Source: Acidobacteriota bacterium
GTDB lineage: Bacteria > Acidobacteriota > UBA890 > WLXD01
Length of the DNA stretch: 64,000 nt
NCBI GenBank assembly: GCA_963666055.2
Contig: CAXWPH010000002.1
Location: forward strand, 160,001-224,000
Reading direction: 5' to 3'
In this document: positions 34,201-44,415 of the stretch, in pieces
How positions within the stretch are numbered: position 1 is the first letter of the stretch
How the letters are laid out: each line of letters begins with the position of its first letter
The notes under the pieces: generated by a model
Told to the model about the DNA's origin: nothing
Database searches by the model: none
What the model saw: only the letters and a program-made list of their open reading frames with translations
Translations under genes and position numbers: made by a program

Positions 34201-36657
34201 CTAGCCGAGCTCGAACAGCCGACCGAGCAGCATCTGGAGCGGAAAGCGACCGAGTGCGCCCGCCGCTGCCGCCAGCTCGTCGAAGCGTTTCGTGCTGTCG
34301 GCCTCGAAGCCGGTGCCCCACAGCAATACCGGCAGTGGATCGGCGGCGTGCTGGCCGCTCTCGGACAACGTTGCATGGTCCGACGCCACGCCTACCCGCA
34401 GTGGCTTGCCGGCGTTGGCGTCGAGAAGAACGCCGAGCTCCCGGTCGAGTCTCTCCAGAAACTGCACCTTAAGGTCGGGTCGGCGGTCGTGGCTGGCGAT
34501 GTCTGCACCCTTGACGTGCAGGATGGTCAGGTCGCCCTGCTCGAGGGCGCTCATCGCTGCAGCCATTTTTGCGGGCAGGTCGGTGTCGAGATTGGCGGTC
34601 ATCTGCGGCTCGTTGACGGTCTCCGCACCCAACCAGCGCGCCAGGCCGATGACCGTCCGATCCCCGCTGATGCACGAGACGTGCAGCGGTATCCCAGCCT
34701 CTTCGAGGGTCACCAGCCGGTGCAGTCGTCCAGCGCCGCGGCTCAGCACTGCGTTTGCCGGCGGTTGTCCGTGCTGTCGGCGACTCTCGTTGATCGGGTG
34801 AACCTTCAGTACCGCACGTGCCTCGGCTTCGAACGCCGAGAGTATGCGCGCGGTATGAGTGGCGGCCTCGTTGGCGCCGTCGATAGGCTCCACGGTCAGC
34901 GGCGGTCCGGTCGGTGCTCCGTCGCCCGGGTCGCTGCCGGTGATTGCGGGCGACAGGTTGGGTCCCTGGGCGACAATCGCCAAGCGGTGCTCGGTCGCCG
35001 CTTTGACGCGCAGCCGCACGCCGCGAGTGACGCTCTCCGGTAACCGAATCGCGTCCAGGGCGTCAGCTAGCGCCACTGCCCCGTCGCGTATTCGTCCCGC
35101 CCGTCGATCGACCACGTTGCCGTCGTCGTCGACTGTCGACAGGTTGGCGCGCCACGCGATGTCCCCGGGCAACATCTCGAGGCCAGCGCCGAGCGCCTCG
35201 ACGGGCCCTCGCTTCAGTGCTCGGGGCGACTGCCCGAATAGGGCCAGGGTTCCGGCCGCGGTGTCCGGTACCACGCCCGGTGCTACCGGATCTGCCAGGC
35301 CGAGCGTTCCCTCCTGGGCCAACCGGTCGAGGTTCGGCGTGTTGGCCGCCTGCAGCGGCGTGCGACCCCCGAGCGCACGCACGGCGCGGTCAGCAACACC
35401 ATCGATGATCAGCAGCAACGTCGCGGTGTCGCCGTGCGACTCAACCCAGTCGGCATGCGCCAGGGCCGGCACCTGTCGTTCGAGCTCGGCGGTCACCAAC
35501 TGCACCGCGTGGACCTCCGGATTGCCATCACGGGAGGTGTCGAGAAACGGAATGTCGTGTGCCTCGGCCATTTGCATCAAGTGATCATTGATGGCGCGAA
35601 TGCCGTCGAACGCGTCGAGGTAACGATCGGCGCGGCGCGAACCCGTCGGTGCGCGGGTGAGGATACGAGCGCGGAGTGACTCCTCGTCGGGGGTGCCGAG
35701 CATGATGGCGACCTGGTACGCCTCGCCGGCGAGGTCCGCGAACGGCACGATGCCTGGCAACAGGTGTACGCCCTCTACGATGATGCTGACGTTCTCCTGA
35801 ATGGCGCGCTCGATGACCGCGCGCGTGCCAACACAGACTCGCCTTGCCTGCTCCTGGTAGCTCTCGAGCAGCGTGTCGGGGCTGTCGGCGACAGCGTGGT
35901 CGGCGGGTACGTTTGCCTCGTGCGTAAACTCGAAGCTCGAGCGGTGTAGCGCCGGCAAGATCTCGGGTGTGAACACCATACGCATTACCTGCCGGATCGT
36001 GTCGGTGGAGGAGACGCGGTAGATACGAAGAAGCGGGGCGAGCTGCAGCGCCAGGCTCGATTTGCCAGTGCCGCTGGTGCCGCCGATGTAGACGATTACC
36101 GGGCGAGGGAGCCGGTTGATGCGTCGGATCGTCCGGTAGCGCAGCTTGGCCTTGACGCCGGTGTGTTGCTCGAGCAGCACATCGACCCGGCGGGCGACCT
36201 CGGTGCTCGGCAAGCTGGCAACGGACTCCTCGCGTAGCTGGGATTCGACTTCGGCGGCGAGGCGATAGGCGCGCTCGGCAGGCACACCGCTTGCGTAGAT
36301 CGTTTCGGCCAGGAGCCCCTTCGAGAAGGGATGAGCCTGCCCCTTGCTGATGACCTCCATGCGCGGCTCTGCTTCGTCCGGTTCCGCCAGCTTGAAAGTC
36401 ACCTCAGGCCCCAACCGCTTCGCCAGCGCGGATGCGATCAACTTGCGCAGCTCGTCCTTGTCGACCTCTTCCCGACCCTTGAGCGTGTCGCGGACGTCGC
36501 GCGCCGTTGCGTAGGCCTCCTCGAACTCGACGCCCCGGCGCACCAGGTCGTGGGTCACCATGCCGCGCAGGAAACGAGTGCGCGCGCCGGATGCCGACAC
36601 CACGTGCAGCGATCCGCCTTGTTTCGCTGGTGGTTTTTTACGGGGCGGCTTGGCCAT
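34201..36657 (-). CDS. Fusion: 2x ATP-cone + 2-phosphoglycerate kinase + ApgM-type cofactor-independent phosphoglycerate mutase
   Basis: RFLRG and PFSKGLL cones; IGGTSGTGKS, STDTIRQVMR, LHRSSF, IVEGVHL (2PGK); IIDGVADR, TPLQAANTPNLD, HVKGADIASHD, SDHAT, HAADP (ApgM). Confidence 0.88.
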   Translation of the reverse strand: MAKPPRKKPPAKQGGSLHVVSASGARTRFLRGMVTHDLVRRGVEFEEAYATARDVRDTLKGREEVDKDELRKLIASALAKRLGPEVTFKLAEPDEAEPRMEVISKGQAHPFSKGLLAETIYASGVPAERAYRLAAEVESQLREESVASLPSTEVARRVDVLLEQHTGVKAKLRYRTIRRINRLPRPVIVYIGGTSGTGKSSLALQLAPLLRIYRVSSTDTIRQVMRMVFTPEILPALHRSSFEFTHEANVPADHAVADSPDTLLESYQEQARRVCVGTRAVIERAIQENVSIIVEGVHLLPGIVPFADLAGEAYQVAIMLGTPDEESLRARILTRAPTGSRRADRYLDAFDGIRAINDHLMQMAEAHDIPFLDTSRDGNPEVHAVQLVTAELERQVPALAHADWVESHGDTATLLLIIDGVADRAVRALGGRTPLQAANTPNLDRLAQEGTLGLADPVAPGVVPDTAAGTLALFGQSPRALKRGPVEALGAGLEMLPGDIAWRANLSTVDDDGNVVDRRAGRIRDGAVALADALDAIRLPESVTRGVRLRVKAATEHRLAIVAQGPNLSPAITGSDPGDGAPTGPPLTVEPIDGANEAATHTARILSAFEAEARAVLKVHPINESRRQHGQPPANAVLSRGAGRLHRLVTLEEAGIPLHVSCISGDRTVIGLARWLGAETVNEPQMTANLDTDLPAKMAAAMSALEQGDLTILHVKGADIASHDRRPDLKVQFLERLDRELGVLLDANAGKPLRVGVASDHATLSESGQHAADPLPVLLWGTGFEADSTKRFDELAAAAGALGRFPLQMLLGRLFELG

Positions 36658-36797
36658 GGACGCGAGTGGGAGGGGGCCGAGGATCAACCGTAGCGGCCCT
36701 CGACAGAGTCGGCGTCTCGCTGTGTTTGCGAGCCGCGAACATGCGCCCGGTGAGCGTACGTTCGATCACTCCACTGAGCAACACGAGAACGCGCGCC

Positions 36798-37166
36798 TCA
36801 GATCGTTGGCGAGGCTCCACTGCGCCCGATCGACCGGAATGCCATCGCAGCGACAATCAGGCTCCCGAGGATCGCCGTGCCGGCAAGGCCTATGGCGTGT
36901 CCTAGATTCGTGTCGGCGGCGTCGATCCAACTTTGGGTGTCGATGTTCATTCCCGCCCCTCCGGTCCAGCCGAGGATCATGAAGGTGGCGAATATCAGGC
37001 TGAGGCAGGTGACGAAGCCCGGCAGGAAACGAGCCCACGGGAACTCGATCGGCGGCGGCATTTCGGCTTCCTCGCGTACCCTCTCCATCACTCGAGCGGT
37101 GAACCCGTTGGTAGGGCGCACCACCGGTTCGTTCGTGAGGATGCGGTCCAAGTCGTCCATGTTCAT
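36798..37166 (-). CDS. Putative membrane anti-sigma factor
   Basis: Translationally coupled to the ECF gene; P..GFTARVMERV motif followed by two TM helices. Confidence 0.7.
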   Translation of the reverse strand: MNMDDLDRILTNEPVVRPTNGFTARVMERVREEAEMPPPIEFPWARFLPGFVTCLSLIFATFMILGWTGGAGMNIDTQSWIDAADTNLGHAIGLAGTAILGSLIVAAMAFRSIGRSGASPTI

Positions 37167-37786
37167 GCCTCCTCGGTTGCCAGCGACGGCCGGCACATCA
37201 TGCCGGCGAGCTTGTCTTGCAACAACTTGCGGCCGCGAAACAGCCGCGCCTTCACCGTGCCCTCGCGCAGACGGGAAGTGCGTGCTGTCTCGGCCAGATC
37301 CATCTCATGAAAGTAGTAGAGGACGATCACGTCGCGATACTTCGGGGGCAAGGTCGCCACGGCGCGCCGCACTACGTCGGCGCGCAGGTCACTGTCCAAC
37401 TCGACGCTGCGATCCCCAGCGATCAACAAGTCGAGCCCGTCGAGCTCCACGGCCGGCGGCAACCGCCGACGCATCGCGCTACGGTACTGATTGAGCGCTA
37501 CCGAGAACATCCAGGTCGAGAACCGTCCTTCTCGCCGCCACTGTGGCAGGCCTCCGAAGATCTTTAGAAACGCCTCCTGCGCCAGCTCCTCTGCCTCTCC
37601 CTGATCCCGGCAGAAGCGATACGCCATGTTGACAAGAGGCTCCTGCCAACGCGTGACGATACCCTCGAAAGCATCGGTGTCGCCGGCGAGTACCCGTCGT
37701 ACGGCGCTTGCGTCGTCGTCGTATCGTTCTGCGCTGCCCGCCATGTGTCTATCCCAGTGGACTGCCGTCGCGCTCGCCAGACCCAT
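37163..37786 (-). CDS. ECF (SigW/RpoE-like) sigma-70 factor
   Basis: GDTDAF, AEELAQEAFLK, FSTW, LPPKYR, GTVKARLFRGR. Confidence 0.95.
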   Translation of the reverse strand: MGLASATAVHWDRHMAGSAERYDDDASAVRRVLAGDTDAFEGIVTRWQEPLVNMAYRFCRDQGEAEELAQEAFLKIFGGLPQWRREGRFSTWMFSVALNQYRSAMRRRLPPAVELDGLDLLIAGDRSVELDSDLRADVVRRAVATLPPKYRDVIVLYYFHEMDLAETARTSRLREGTVKARLFRGRKLLQDKLAGMMCRPSLATEEA

Positions 37787-37821
37787 GGTGGTGACCTCTC
37801 CTCGCCGGATACCGGATCGAT

Positions 37822-38262
37822 CTATTCGTCACCGGGTCGGGGGAAGGCACCTACCCGCGGCGCCGGCAGCGCCAGCTTCGGTGCGGGCAGTAGCGCGTAC
37901 GCCAGCATCGCCAGTCCGATAAACAGCGGAATGCTGCCGACCATCCACAGGTCTGGGTCGTCGATGAACCGCAGCCCGAAGATAAGCCCCACGCCGGCGC
38001 CCGAGAGGATGAAGCCTGTCGCCATCATGCCCTGACGGCGTCGATGTTGTTCGGCCTCGTACTCGTATCGCACCAGATCTTGAACCTGCTGGGCGTTCAT
38101 TTCGCCAGCGTCGACAAGCTTCTTGCGAAACTCGTAGCGATAGTACGCCTCGCGCTCCTTGCGGCGCTGCTCGGCCCAGCCAACGACCGCCAGGAAACTG
38201 AATAGGGAGATCGCGCCGACGATCGGGATCATGAAGATCAGAGCTTGTGGGAACCAATTCAT
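37822..38262 (-). CDS. DUF6249-like membrane protein
   Basis: TM, then RRKEREAYYR, then two TMs (GVGL, IPLFIGLA); first gene of the ECF operon. Confidence 0.65.
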   Translation of the reverse strand: MNWFPQALIFMIPIVGAISLFSFLAVVGWAEQRRKEREAYYRYEFRKKLVDAGEMNAQQVQDLVRYEYEAEQHRRRQGMMATGFILSGAGVGLIFGLRFIDDPDLWMVGSIPLFIGLAMLAYALLPAPKLALPAPRVGAFPRPGDE

Positions 38263-41539: not shown

Positions 41540-41714
41540 GTAGACAGTTCGACCTTGTGTCGGGAAGCGGGTGCGAATCCCGCGCTGCCGCGCAACTGTG
41601 ATCGGGGACGAAAGCCGCCCGAGGAGCGGCCGCATCGTGCGGTCGGCTCCGGAATGCCACTGGTAGCACCGGGAAGGTGGCGGCGAGTAGGACGATCCGA
41701 GAGCCAGGAAACCG
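41540..41714 (+). ncRNA. Cobalamin (AdoCbl) riboswitch
   Basis: GGGAAGCGGGTGCGAATCCCGCGCTGCCGCGCAACTGTGA ... GCCACTG..CCGGGAAGG ... GAGCCAGGA (B12 box), directly upstream of a FecCD/Btu-type ABC operon. Confidence 0.93.
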
Positions 41715-41754
41715 AACCGGCCACCGGCCGGCCCTCGCGGGAAGGGATGCCACG

Positions 41755-42549
41755 ATGGCGCAGGCACGTCCGTCTAGACCGGCAGCGGACCTCGCCGCGA
41801 GCCGACCCGGCGTATCGCTGCGTGCCGACGGTATCGTCTTCGGCTTCGACGGCCCGCTACTGCGCGGCGTCGATCTCCGGGTCTCCGGCGGCGAGTGCAT
41901 CGCACTGCTCGGCGCCAACGGTGCCGGAAAGACTACCTTACTGCGGCTTCTGGGCGGGCTGATCGAGCCACACGCTGGCCAGGTCGAGGTCGACGGCATC
42001 GCGTCTCCGCGTCTGTCGCACGAGCAACGCGCCCAGCGCATCGGCTACTTGCCGCAGCGTATCCCGGTGGCGACCGGATTCGCTGTCTACGAGATGGTGC
42101 TGATGGGGATGTACGCTCTGCTGCCAGCGCGCGGCTGGGAGAGCCAGCGCGAGTGGCTGTCGGTGGGACGTGCGCTGCATCGCGTGGGGGCGCGACGCCT
42201 GATGCGGCGTCCGTTCGACGAGCTTAGCGGCGGCGAGCAACGCCGCGTGCTGCTTGCCCGCGCCCTGGTGGCGCGACCGGGCCTGTTGCTGCTCGACGAG
42301 CCGCTCGCTGCCCTCGATCCGGGATTCGTCCTCGAGCTGACTGCGACGCTCGCTACCCTGAAGTCGTCGGGCGTGGGCATGGTGATCTCCACTCATCGGC
42401 TCTCGCTGGTGCGTCAGCTCGCCGACCGGGTGGTTGTGCTTCGTCGCGGTGAGGTCTTGGCGGCGGGGACGCCGAGTGCGACTCTGAGCCCCGTCTTGCT
42501 CGACGAAGCGTATTGCACGGATGCGTTTTCCCGTGCCGATGCCGGATGA
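41755..42549 (+). CDS. btuD: Cobalamin ABC importer ATPase
   Basis: GANGAGKTT, LSGGEQRR, LLDEP; downstream of the B12 riboswitch. Confidence 0.85.
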   Translation: MAQARPSRPAADLAASRPGVSLRADGIVFGFDGPLLRGVDLRVSGGECIALLGANGAGKTTLLRLLGGLIEPHAGQVEVDGIASPRLSHEQRAQRIGYLPQRIPVATGFAVYEMVLMGMYALLPARGWESQREWLSVGRALHRVGARRLMRRPFDELSGGEQRRVLLARALVARPGLLLLDEPLAALDPGFVLELTATLATLKSSGVGMVISTHRLSLVRQLADRVVVLRRGEVLAAGTPSATLSPVLLDEAYCTDAFSRADAG

Positions 42550-43568
42550 GTCGTCGCGCATTGTTGCCACGACGTCGACGCTCGATGCTATTGGTGGGCA
42601 GTGGAGCGGCGTTGGCGATTGCCCTGTTGCTCGCCCCGACGGTGGGTTCCACGTCGGTGAGCATGCAGCGCGTATGGGCCGATCCGTTCAGCTGGGCCGA
42701 CAACCCCGATGCGGCGGTGTTCTTCGTGGCACGACTGCCACGAGTACTACTGGCGTGCATGGTTGGAGGAACGCTGGCTCTCGCTGGAGCAACGTTCCAG
42801 TCGCTGCTACGCAACCCGCTTGCCAGCCCCTACACACTCGGTGTTACTGCCGGCGCGACGCTGGCGGCATTCCTGGCCATCCGCTTTTCTCCAAGGCCCT
42901 CGTTGGCGGAGTTCTCAGTGCCGCTGCTGGCGCTGGCGGGCGCCCTGGCAACCACCGGACTGTTGCTGTTGCTGACGTCGCGCCGTAGCGATCTGCCGCC
43001 GACCGTGCTGTTGCTCGCCGGTGTGACGCTCAACTTTACGATCAGCGCCGGTGTTCTGTTGTTGCAGTACTTCTCGGATCACGCCGAGACGGCGCGCATG
43101 ATCCGCTACCTGATGGGAGATCTGGACGCTGCCACGTACCGCATGCTGTTGCTGCTGGCGGTGGTGAGCCTGCCGGGTTGGTTAGCGTTGCTACGTGCCG
43201 GTCGCACGCTGAATCTTCTGAGCCTCGGTCCCGACGAGGCGCGTGCGCAGGGAATCAATGCCGCGGCGGCGACGCGCAAGGGCTTGCTGTGGGCATCTTG
43301 GGTCACCGGTTTGGCGGTGGCCGTGGCGGGGCCGGTGGGCTTCGTCGGGATCCTCGTGCCGCACGCCGTGAGGCTGCTCGGAGGGTACGACTATCGCATT
43401 GTGTTGCCGGCATCGATGCTCGGCGGCGCGGCGTTTCTGATCGCCTGCGACACTGCCGCACGCCTGCTACTGGCGCCGGTGGAGCTGCCCGTGGGCATTC
43501 TCACTGCGTCCCTCGGTGGCCCCTTCTTTCTCATGCTGCTGCTGAGCCGGCGGATTCGCCATGCGTAG
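42546..43568 (+). CDS. btuC: Cobalamin ABC importer permease (FecCD family)
   Basis: RLPR, QSLLRNPLASP..LGV..GA, LG.DEA, GFVG..VPH, ELPVG. Confidence 0.9.
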   Translation: MSRRALLPRRRRSMLLVGSGAALAIALLLAPTVGSTSVSMQRVWADPFSWADNPDAAVFFVARLPRVLLACMVGGTLALAGATFQSLLRNPLASPYTLGVTAGATLAAFLAIRFSPRPSLAEFSVPLLALAGALATTGLLLLLTSRRSDLPPTVLLLAGVTLNFTISAGVLLLQYFSDHAETARMIRYLMGDLDAATYRMLLLLAVVSLPGWLALLRAGRTLNLLSLGPDEARAQGINAAAATRKGLLWASWVTGLAVAVAGPVGFVGILVPHAVRLLGGYDYRIVLPASMLGGAAFLIACDTAARLLLAPVELPVGILTASLGGPFFLMLLLSRRIRHA

Positions 43569-44415
43569 GGGCGGTGCCTTCCGGTGCATGGGGCTGCTCG
43601 GTGTCATCCTGCCACTGTACGTAGTGCCTTTGGAGTTGCAGGCGCCACCTCAGCGGGTCGTCTCTCTGGTACCGGGTGCCACCGAGGTACTGTTCGCGAT
43701 CGGCGCGGGCGAGCGCGTCGCCGGCGTGAGCAGCTTCGATCACTGGCCACCCGAGGTCGAGCGGCTTCCCCGCCTAGGGGGTCTGATCGACCCGGATCTG
43801 GAGGCGATTCTGACGCTGCGGCCCGATCTGGCGATCATCGACCCGTCGCAGAGCTCGCTGCGGCGTCAGCTGGCACTGAGTGGGATCGCTACGTACGAGT
43901 ATGCCACCGCCGATGTGGCTGATCTGTTGCGCAACATGCGGGCGTTCGGAGAGTTGCTCGGCCTATCAGACGGCGCCGCCCGGTCTGCAGACGAGCTGAG
44001 CGCCGACCTCGACGCCGTTCGCGCTCGCTACGCTTCCGACGATCCGCCGAACGTCCTGATGGTATTCGGCCGGCGCGATGGTAGCTTCGCCGAGCTTTGG
44101 GTAAACGGCGGCGTCGGCTTTCTCGAAGAGCTTACCGCCATCGCCGGTGGCCGCAACGTCTTTGGCGATGTGGAGCGTCCAGGGTTCAAGGCAGGGCTCG
44201 AGGCGGTCATCGCGCGTGTTCCCGACGTCGTCGTGGAGCTTCGCACCGACGGTCAGGATGCCGTGCCGACGGCGACGCTCGAGATGGAATGGCGAACCTT
44301 GCCGGGGTTCGCGAATGTCCGGGTGGTGACGCTCGCCGCGGGCTGGATGCTGGTGCCGGGTCCGCGCGTCGCCGAAGCCGCACAGGTGCTGGGCGAGCGG
44401 CTGCACGGGCGTTGA
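43561..44415 (+). CDS. btuF: Cobalamin-binding periplasmic protein
   Basis: PQRVVSLVPGATE.LFAIG, PDLEAIL.L.PD, AGGRNVF, PGPR. Confidence 0.88.
   Translation: MRRGGAFRCMGLLGVILPLYVVPLELQAPPQRVVSLVPGATEVLFAIGAGERVAGVSSFDHWPPEVERLPRLGGLIDPDLEAILTLRPDLAIIDPSQSSLRRQLALSGIATYEYATADVADLLRNMRAFGELLGLSDGAARSADELSADLDAVRARYASDDPPNVLMVFGRRDGSFAELWVNGGVGFLEELTAIAGGRNVFGDVERPGFKAGLEAVIARVPDVVVELRTDGQDAVPTATLEMEWRTLPGFANVRVVTLAAGWMLVPGPRVAEAAQVLGERLHGR

Follow-up and report, generated by a model that had tools for sequence, protein, structure and literature searches.

The nearest characterised relative of the kinase described here, 2-phosphoglycerate kinase (2PGK), is an archaeal maker of 2,3-BPG and the first enzyme of the cDPG pathway of Methanothermus fervidus. 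In eukaryotes, PFK-2/FBPase-2 joins a P-loop kinase of NMP-kinase fold to a domain that descends from a mutase and takes away the bisphosphate which the kinase has made. Kinases of the 2PGK family are widespread where cDPG synthetase is lacking: they have been noted in mesophilic methanogens (PMC2686161) and in Thermus and Deinococcus (PMC1274311), and they also occur in plants (LPA1) and in the bacteria sampled for this study (29 of 251 genomes from the phylum of our locus, and 46 of a second set of 201). cDPG metabolism has been tied to carbon and phosphate storage in a review (PMC1224877), and in two plant studies loss or overexpression of the 2PGK homologue LPA1/OsPGK1 alters stored phosphorus (PMC6417671, PMC4844318), the rice homologue altering that of the seed (PMC4844318). 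A protein that unites such a kinase with a dedicated partner makes the role of these kinases testable, and we describe one from an Acidobacteriota bacterium.

The fusion gene, its cones and its kinase

The window analysed is a stretch of 64,000 nucleotides, and the gene occupies 34201..36657 on its minus strand. A single reading frame runs from an ATG at 36657 to a stop at 34201, with many stops on the plus strand opposite, and encodes 818 aa arranged as cone, cone, 2PGK-family kinase and Thr-type ApgM domain. A TTG at 36687, upstream of the ATG, offers an alternative start that would give 828 aa. A scan for promoters and terminators at the gene found none, a plasmid search returned 20 records, all of which cover less than 80% of the protein, and literature searches found no account of the fusion. 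The fusion is real, because it is found at full length in 14 of 18 genomes of the class. A preliminary description of the locus had named an assembly artefact as a possible undoing; this is ruled out by contigs from three sequencing runs in two studies, in which the gene runs through with no joint or gap (one of the runs may be the source sample), together with numerous full-length relatives. The same description had read from the DNA an ORF of about 818 aa, two ATP-cones, a P-loop kinase with the motifs GGTSGTGKS, STD.IR and EGVH, and a full mutase domain with its metal ligands in which PDTA replaces PGSD and puts Thr at the nucleophile site, all of which our analysis confirms.

The two cones lie at 36382..36609 (residues 17-92, with a conserved FLRG..TH.L.R) and 36133..36363 (residues 99-175, with a conserved PFS(R/K)GLL), both on the minus strand. 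Pfam matches the second cone alone and under its cut-off (20.7 against 25.8 bits), and both are matched by the 2PGK model; hhalign pairs one with the other at a probability of 95.7, their strands and helices follow in the same sequence in the AlphaFold model, and both belong to an alignment in which 33 of 37 members match PF03477 at E <= 0.01. The N-terminal ATP-cone fold is thus that of the 2PGK family, and because an ATP-cone is normal in 2PGK family models, the novelty of the protein does not lie in its cones. Nucleotide-sensing cones of the NrdR/RNR type carry a K-[RK]-D-G hairpin and an F-D-x-x-K helix start, a motif present in one NrdR-like ORF of the same genome. In an alignment of the query and the 120 homologues listed, the sensing type is not recovered: cone 1 is without the canonical KRDG-type hairpin in the query, the hairpin occurs in 5 of 121 sequences for cone 1 and in 1 of 121 for cone 2, and Met or Leu replaces the Lys. 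The nucleotide control of the fusion that had been proposed earlier is accordingly unsupported, the canonical residues for binding nucleotides being absent from the cones.

The kinase domain (35458..36102, minus strand; residues 186-400) has an NMP-kinase-like fold and the P-loop, D..R and EG.H motifs of 2PGK, here GGTSGTGKS (192-200), STDTIR (217-222) and EGVH (295-298); K199, S200, D219, R222, E295, G296 and H298 are kept in all 121 aligned sequences. Its closest characterised family is 2PGK, at 250 bits, mevalonate-3-phosphate 5-kinase following at 44 bits. Both NCBIfam 2PGK cut-offs are missed (246.5 bits against 343, and 274.3 against 603, by models spanning residues 99-373 and 19-402), the kinase family also takes in a mevalonate kinase and a plant protein of disputed substrate, and a search for a close solved structure with which to compare the kinase pocket found none. 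The domain is predicted to phosphorylate 2PG to 2,3-BPG.

The threonine-type domain and its dependence on the kinase

The remainder of the protein (34204..35421, minus strand; residues 413-818) is an ApgM-fold domain of the alkaline-phosphatase superfamily. The six metal-ligand positions (D419, D719, H723, D760, H761 and H770) are kept in 121 of 121 sequences and K716 is intact; the model of the domain (pLDDT 95.3) has the ApgM fold and a binuclear metal site, and Foldseek matches it to Pyrococcus 2zkt with a TM of 0.80-0.86. The Arg-rich motifs DRRAGR, HR and RG are common to this domain and to true mutases. Retention of the full metal site and of these motifs suggests that the enzyme is active and that its substrate resembles glycerate.

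The motif P464-D465-T466-A467 (35257..35268, minus strand) aligns with A-G-S-D of 2zkt, and Thr466 therefore stands where conventional ApgM has its phospho-Ser; D465-T466-A467 is found in all 121 sequences (the query and the 120 homologues listed). The loop reads D-T-A-A-G-T in place of the G-S-x-x-x-H of Ser-nucleophile enzymes: G-S is present in 28 of 28 Ser forms and a His four residues past the nucleophile in 27 of 28, against 11 of 61 Thr forms, and a literature search on the role of that His found nothing relevant. In a quick tree one branch separates 61 Thr from 29 Ser rows (SH-aLRT 99), and position 668 is among several further diagnostic ones, with Thr in the Thr forms (98%) and Leu or Met in the Ser forms. 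The cut-off of the TIGR00306 subfamily (320) is reached by the domain alone (320.4) and missed by the whole protein (317.5); the ApgM equivalogs PRK04024 (355 of 489) and PRK04135 (204.5 of 468) are missed, as is the PhpG phosphonoformyl transferase (225.5 of 545 bits). Alkaline phosphatase carries a similar D-T-A motif, and a search of the genome for a PF00245 gene to compare gave none. We dropped D-T-A as a general mark of phosphatase activity, as neither position 465 nor position 467 is constant within the Thr clade.

Across the 251 genomes of the phylum, the Thr domain occurs in 22 of the 29 that carry the kinase, invariably fused or adjacent to it, and in 0 of the 222 that do not; in the second sample, 8 of 8 Thr matches are fused to a kinase. 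Of the kinases, 7 of the phylum's 29 and 37 of the second sample's 46 have no Thr partner (the nine partnered kinases of that sample are eight intact fusions and one split by a frame change). The dependence is one-way, of the Thr domain on the kinase, in both samples, and the kinase tree shows at least two, probably three, label changes, which amounts to repeated fusion. All 30 Thr-domain genomes checked have a separate ordinary mutase: GpmI over cut-off in 13, PRK04135 over cut-off in 6, and a second ApgM in 11 (with a Ser-type motif in 10; in G012 the motif was not read). The Thr domain is therefore dispensable for 3PG/2PG exchange and is probably not the glycolytic mutase. Our own genome yielded no GpmI over cut-off and no match to GpmA (TIGR01258), and for this genome 2,3-BPG as the cofactor of a GpmA mutase was discarded on the latter ground. 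The suggestion in the preliminary description of a changed enzyme, perhaps half of a kinase/phosphatase pair, best fits a Thr clade found solely with the kinase while an ordinary mutase is kept alongside.

Phosphate genes and candidate functions

A gene for PPK1, PPK2, Ppx, NptA, PhoU or PstS is present no further than about 6 kb away in 38 of 86 loci, in 21 of 44 clusters, and in 0 of 22 control loci, although p-values are overstated because kin among the loci and genomes are not independent. These neighbours are missing from 23 of the 44 clusters; in one relative the operon runs NptA-PhoU-Ppx-ApgM(Thr)-CBS-kinase. The link in relatives is absent from the preliminary description, and no phosphate gene was found near the fusion in the window itself. 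An accessory role for polyphosphate kinase is weakened by the lack of a PPK1 or PPK2 match in our genome (95.7% complete); PPK1 likewise has no match in 6 of the 14 fusion-bearing genomes of the class.

Our preferred reading, held tentatively, is that the conserved fusion both makes and removes 2,3-BPG in a cycle: from 2PG and ATP the kinase would produce 2,3-BPG, from which the Thr domain would accept a phosphate on Thr466 and then release it or pass it on. This reading builds on the architecture, catalytic residues that are intact, a Thr clade that depends on the kinase, the separate mutase and the phosphate neighbours in relatives; from these we infer both substrates and which way the second reaction runs, and suggest that the cycle likely serves phosphate housekeeping, perhaps as a small phosphate store or signal. 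A bolder form, possible but doubtful, takes the Thr-type ApgM clade for an undescribed phosphatase or phosphotransferase acting on 2,3-BPG that makes, with 2PGK, a switch like PFK-2/FBPase-2 for setting 2,3-BPG; it would have evolved independently from the alkaline-phosphatase superfamily, alongside polyphosphate kinases and, in some genomes, without them. If the Thr domain does act on 2,3-BPG, an enzyme would be named for the step back from that compound, a small-molecule branch would be added to bacterial phosphate homeostasis, and many database entries for a '2,3-BPG-independent phosphoglycerate mutase' would be mislabelled.

The Thr domain might instead still be a 3PG/2PG mutase that supplies the kinase, so that the protein turns 3PG into 2,3-BPG, or a mutase primed by the kinase's 2,3-BPG, much as phosphopentomutase is primed by a sugar bisphosphate; taken jointly, we consider these two forms rather unlikely. 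Every ApgM metal-ligand and Arg position is retained, the domain alone just reaches the TIGR00306 cut-off and matches the 2zkt fold, and the primed form would also account for the restriction of the Thr domain to kinase genomes. Thr alone is, moreover, no proof of a phosphatase, since phosphopentomutase, a true mutase of the superfamily, has an active-site Thr85 (PMC11641776). However, the G-S-x-x-x-H loop, near-invariant in Ser-type mutases, is gone, many kinases do without a partner, and the separate mutases of all 30 genomes, with two enolase genes in our own, make the supply of 2PG independent of the Thr domain. We hold as improbable that kinase and partner act, as a matching kinase and phosphotransferase or phosphatase, on a different acid, sugar or inositol phosphate in connection with phosphate metabolism. 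Such a substrate would suit the missed equivalog cut-offs of both halves and the presence of mevalonate-3-phosphate 5-kinase in the kinase family and of PhpG in the ApgM family; the 2PGK of mesophilic methanogens probably has another function (PMC2686161), and an inositol monophosphate kinase role has been put forward for the rice homologue (PMC4844318). Yet 2PGK outscores the other characterised kinases by a wide margin, the partner stems from a family that handles phosphoglycerates and retains its Arg motifs, and two independent ancestries of phosphoglycerate type would point to phosphoglycerate; the annotated neighbour clusters hold no recurrent conserved biosynthetic gene for another compound, and phosphonate genes are absent among the annotated neighbours.

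A thermoprotective cDPG route, proposed in the preliminary description, fares worse. As stated there, the window contains no cDPG synthetase, and a search for cpgS elsewhere in the genome was advised; whole-genome scans found one distant relative, on another contig (C15:639012-640388), whose PDB matches are cDPG synthetases only (E 1.5e-5 with the single sequence, 1.4e-8 with a profile) and whose type is present in 14 of the 18 class genomes. A relative thus exists, but this sole candidate aligns T-G with K145-R146, the residues by which cDPG synthetase binds 2,3-DPG (PMC10690619), and so lacks the Lys-Arg pair of a true synthetase; the one ORF in the genome with a KR-type P-loop pattern seems by its sequence to be an ABC ATPase. 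Genes of the C15 type occur in 155 of the 251 phylum genomes independently of the kinase (15 of 29 with it against 140 of 222 without, p = 0.31, under the same kinship), and three genomes with the fusion (G008, G009, G016) have no cDPG-synthetase-like match. Given the T-G and the failure to track the kinase, we rejected cyclisation by the C15 protein as the main reading; that it would cyclise 2,3-BPG made by the fusion is very improbable, and a cDPG route of any kind appears unlikely.

Comparison with known systems

The plant homologues LPA1 and OsPGK1 share the kinase family of the fusion, a likeness drawn from family membership; they are eukaryotic, and the available text on them does not mention an ApgM domain. 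Phosphopentomutase of Bacillus cereus has the same superfamily core as the Thr domain and its active-site Thr, with phosphorylated forms in the PDB, but is only about 11% identical and acts on a pentose, and we know of no kinase fused to it. ApgM (TIGR00306; PRK04024, PRK04135; 2zkt, 3idd, 3kd8) has the same fold, six metal ligands, Lys716 and DRRAGR; the Thr domain differs from it in having Thr for Ser, no G-S-x-x-x-H loop and a clade of its own, and in being found solely with the kinase, alongside an ordinary mutase. Known 2PGK (EC 2.7.2.16; NF003259 PRK04220, NF008994 PRK12337; COG2074) likewise combines an ATP-cone with a P-loop kinase, whereas the fusion scores under its cut-offs, bears an attached ApgM-fold domain, is accompanied by no true cDPG synthetase that we could find and has relatives whose neighbours are phosphate genes. 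PFK-2/FBPase-2 follows the same logic as the proposed cycle, by analogy of design and not by homology: its phosphatase has the His-phosphatase (dPGM) fold and a fructose phosphate substrate, while the fusion's C-terminal domain belongs to the other mutase superfamily, that of alkaline phosphatase.

Architecture of the fused gene and its cones

The fusion is an 818-aa open reading frame on the minus strand (34201-36657), with a G+C content of 67% against 65% for the window. In an NCBIfam search, residues 19-402 of its product matched 2PGK models and residues 413-811 matched ApgM mutase models, all under the respective curated cut-offs, and every motif named in the preliminary description was found in the protein. 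A homologue search yielded 452 matches among the 7992 candidates scored; in an alignment of the query with 120 of these, 121 of 121 sequences keep the kinase motifs, all six metal-ligand positions and the D465-T466-A467 triplet. Thr466 shares its alignment column with the Ser in the G-S-D motif of Pyrococcus 2zkt, confirming the proposed replacement of the phospho-Ser by Thr. The two tandem ATP-cones proposed at the same time are supported by a double match of the 2PGK model, a profile-profile match of cone 1 to cone 2, and two cone folds in an AlphaFold model of the full protein (pLDDT 76.1), with which Foldseek retrieved ApgM structures, NMP kinases and one ribonucleotide reductase. Modelled alone, the mutase half reached a pLDDT of 95.3 and matched 2zkt structurally. 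Databases name the protein only phosphoglycerate mutase or hypothetical. An assembly artefact was ruled out, as contigs of three runs (two studies; a two-base difference in one) span the gene without joints, and the fusion is present at full length in 14 of 18 genomes of its class.

Nucleotide control, also suggested earlier, is not supported by the cone sequences. An NrdR-like ORF of the same genome carries a K-K-D-G hairpin with F-D-x-x-K, which we take to be the canonical nucleotide-binding cone motif; a canonical-type hairpin occurs in 5 of 121 sequences for cone 1 and 1 of 121 for cone 2, and the Lys position is Met or Leu in the fusion's cones. Because they have conserved residues of their own (F-L-R-G..T-H; P-F-S-R/K-G), these cones may serve to hold a different ligand or to make contacts.

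The Thr-type domain and the spread of the fusion

The source genome encodes a separate ApgM (C6:29857-31260; motif G-S-G-P-A-H) scoring over the PRK04135 cut-off, while neither GpmI nor GpmA was found there. In a quick IQ-TREE search of 90 dereplicated ApgM domains, with sampling biased to the query's relatives and motif columns included, one branch (SH-aLRT 99) splits 61 Thr from 29 Ser forms. Among 251 Acidobacteriota genomes the Thr domain occurs in 22, in every one fused with or adjacent to the kinase. All 12 kinase-negative genomes of this phylum with an ApgM match at E <= 1e-100 have the Ser motif, at a threshold (~335-340 bits) that remoter Thr forms could escape, the Thr-clade proteins sampled outside the query alignment scoring at least 399 bits. 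A second phylum sample (201 genomes) gave 8 Thr matches, all fused, and 8 further ApgM matches, all Ser-type. Another mutase is present in 30 of 30 Thr-domain genomes: 13 GpmI and 6 PRK04135 over cut-off, complementary among the 19 genomes searched, and 11 via a second ApgM. In the Thr clade the metal site is intact, as are Lys716 and the Arg motifs; the fixed G-S-x-x-x-H loop is gone, and T668 and G578 are new. The second domain of the fusion is probably not the ordinary mutase; it looks both active and specialised, and was found only alongside the kinase. Most simply, it would act on what the kinase makes, or depend on it.

In 15 of 16 representatives of the bacterial PRK04135-type ApgMs (L025-L036, L255-L262, L271-L278), the metal-binding His (position 723 in the fusion) is replaced by Glu. 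The source genome also has two enolase genes (C14:258651-259919 and C15:426393-427655), each over the TIGR01060 cut-off.

Named relatives of the fusion are Acidobacteriota, Thermoanaerobaculia among them. The kinase occurs in 29 of the 251 genomes of this phylum (in 18 it is fused, in 4 it has an ApgM next to it, and in 7 it stands alone) and in 46 of the 201 in the second phylum, reached via locus L003 (8 intact fusions, 1 frame-split, the rest short); no ApgM lay within 1.5 kb of 30 short kinases inspected there, or within ~6 kb of a subset of 12. Since the fused state requires three changes on a FastTree of 71 kinases, two of them forced by starred branches, the fusion has probably arisen more than once. 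One fused gene (L216, genome G371) lies in two frames (611 + 183 aa), and a genome with 8% contamination (G012) holds two copies (L068, L069), one near a PstS-like gene. SAR324 bacteria (P0145, P0152, P0338, P0419, P0424) have a stand-alone Thr-type ApgM (407 aa) plus a stand-alone two-cone kinase (382-389 aa; clusters of 748 and 860 members).

Gene neighbourhood and phosphate

In the window the fusion is flanked on one side by an M23 peptidase gene and on the other by an ECF sigma-factor cluster; proline dehydrogenase and EF-P are encoded nearby, and no phosphate genes were found near it. The cluster (36798-38262, minus strand), 140 bases upstream on the fusion's strand, encodes a DUF6249 protein, an ECF sigma factor and a small membrane protein (possibly an anti-sigma factor). 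A STAS (anti-anti-sigma) gene precedes stand-alone kinases in several families (confirmed at L164 and L165, and accompanied at L164 by an anti-sigma-type kinase gene), with a similar ORF at L166, L169 and L171. At 41561-44415 (plus strand), a cobalamin riboswitch (RF00174, 60.4 bits) followed by an ABC ATPase, a FecCD permease and a periplasmic binding protein likely represents a B12 importer.

Clustering of neighbours at 78 relatives' loci brought out PPK1, a SixA-like His phosphatase, PhoU, a Na/Pi cotransporter and PPK2. Of 117 loci, 86 passed the filters (9 kb or longer, with a kinase match of 250 aa or more), and 38 of these have PPK1, PPK2, Ppx, NptA, PhoU or PstS within ~6 kb, as detected by blastp with nine reference proteins, which divergent members may escape. 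Clustered at 75% identity, 21 of 44 clusters have such neighbours (fused 16/25, adjacent 1/4, alone 4/15), whereas the 22 control loci, taken around ordinary ApgM and the cDPGS-like gene, have none; kin among the loci overstate the significance of this excess. The neighbours vary by lineage: NptA-PhoU-Ppx-ApgM-CBS-kinase at L167, Ppx-SixA-PPK1-kinase at L170, and at L180 a fusion oriented divergently from genes for a response regulator, a sensor kinase and a PstS-like protein. In family f2, PPK1 lies within ~3 kb of the fusion in all five PPK1-bearing genomes. A strict polyphosphate link is disfavoured, because neither PPK1 nor PPK2 was matched in the source genome, and PPK1 was likewise unmatched in 6 of the 14 genomes of the class that carry the fusion; NptA-PhoU and Ppx-SixA pairs are present in the source genome, away from the fusion.

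Candidate functions and known relatives

We tentatively favour, at somewhat under even probability, a reading in which the kinase would convert 2PG and ATP to 2,3-BPG and the Thr domain would accept phosphate on Thr466 and then release or transfer it, the two together setting the level of 2,3-BPG in line with phosphate status. That the Thr domain is instead a feeder mutase or a 2,3-BPG-primed mutase is less likely, and that the kinase-Thr pair works on another substrate is about as likely as that. Phosphopentomutase is primed by a bisphosphate. As it has an active-site Thr85 (PMC11641776), Thr466 fits both making and removing 2,3-BPG and a feeder or primed mutase, without deciding between them.

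The thermoprotectant route of the preliminary description, in which 2,3-BPG from the fusion is cyclised to cDPG, is highly improbable. A search of the genome for cpgS did find one distant relative (C15:639012-640388), whose only PDB matches are cDPG synthetases (E ~1e-5), but it has T-G at the positions of K145 and R146, which bind 2,3-DPG in cDPG synthetase (structure paper, PMC10690619). Nor is its gene coupled to the kinase: this P-loop protein (also L005:6013-7389, minus strand; no NCBIfam family assigned) is strongly conserved (~55-70% identity) and present in 155 of the phylum's 251 sampled genomes, 15 of 29 with the kinase versus 140 of 222 without.

The fusion is a real, widespread pairing of two known families. 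Its partner clade is apparently specialised, its association with phosphate genes is measurable, and its chemistry is predicted from sequence. Neither it nor the Thr-type ApgM clade is described in the literature searched (titles and abstract openings, with thin coverage of subscription journals and older primary papers; further related sources are PMC4302986 and bioRxiv 10.1101/2025.02.21.639460). In published accounts, cDPG is a carbon and phosphate store (PMC1224877), 2PGK occurs without cDPG synthetase in methanogens (PMC2686161), rice LPA1 is a 2PGK homologue (PMC6417671, PMC4844318), and both the 2PGK and ApgM COGs are present in Thermus and Deinococcus (PMC1274311).
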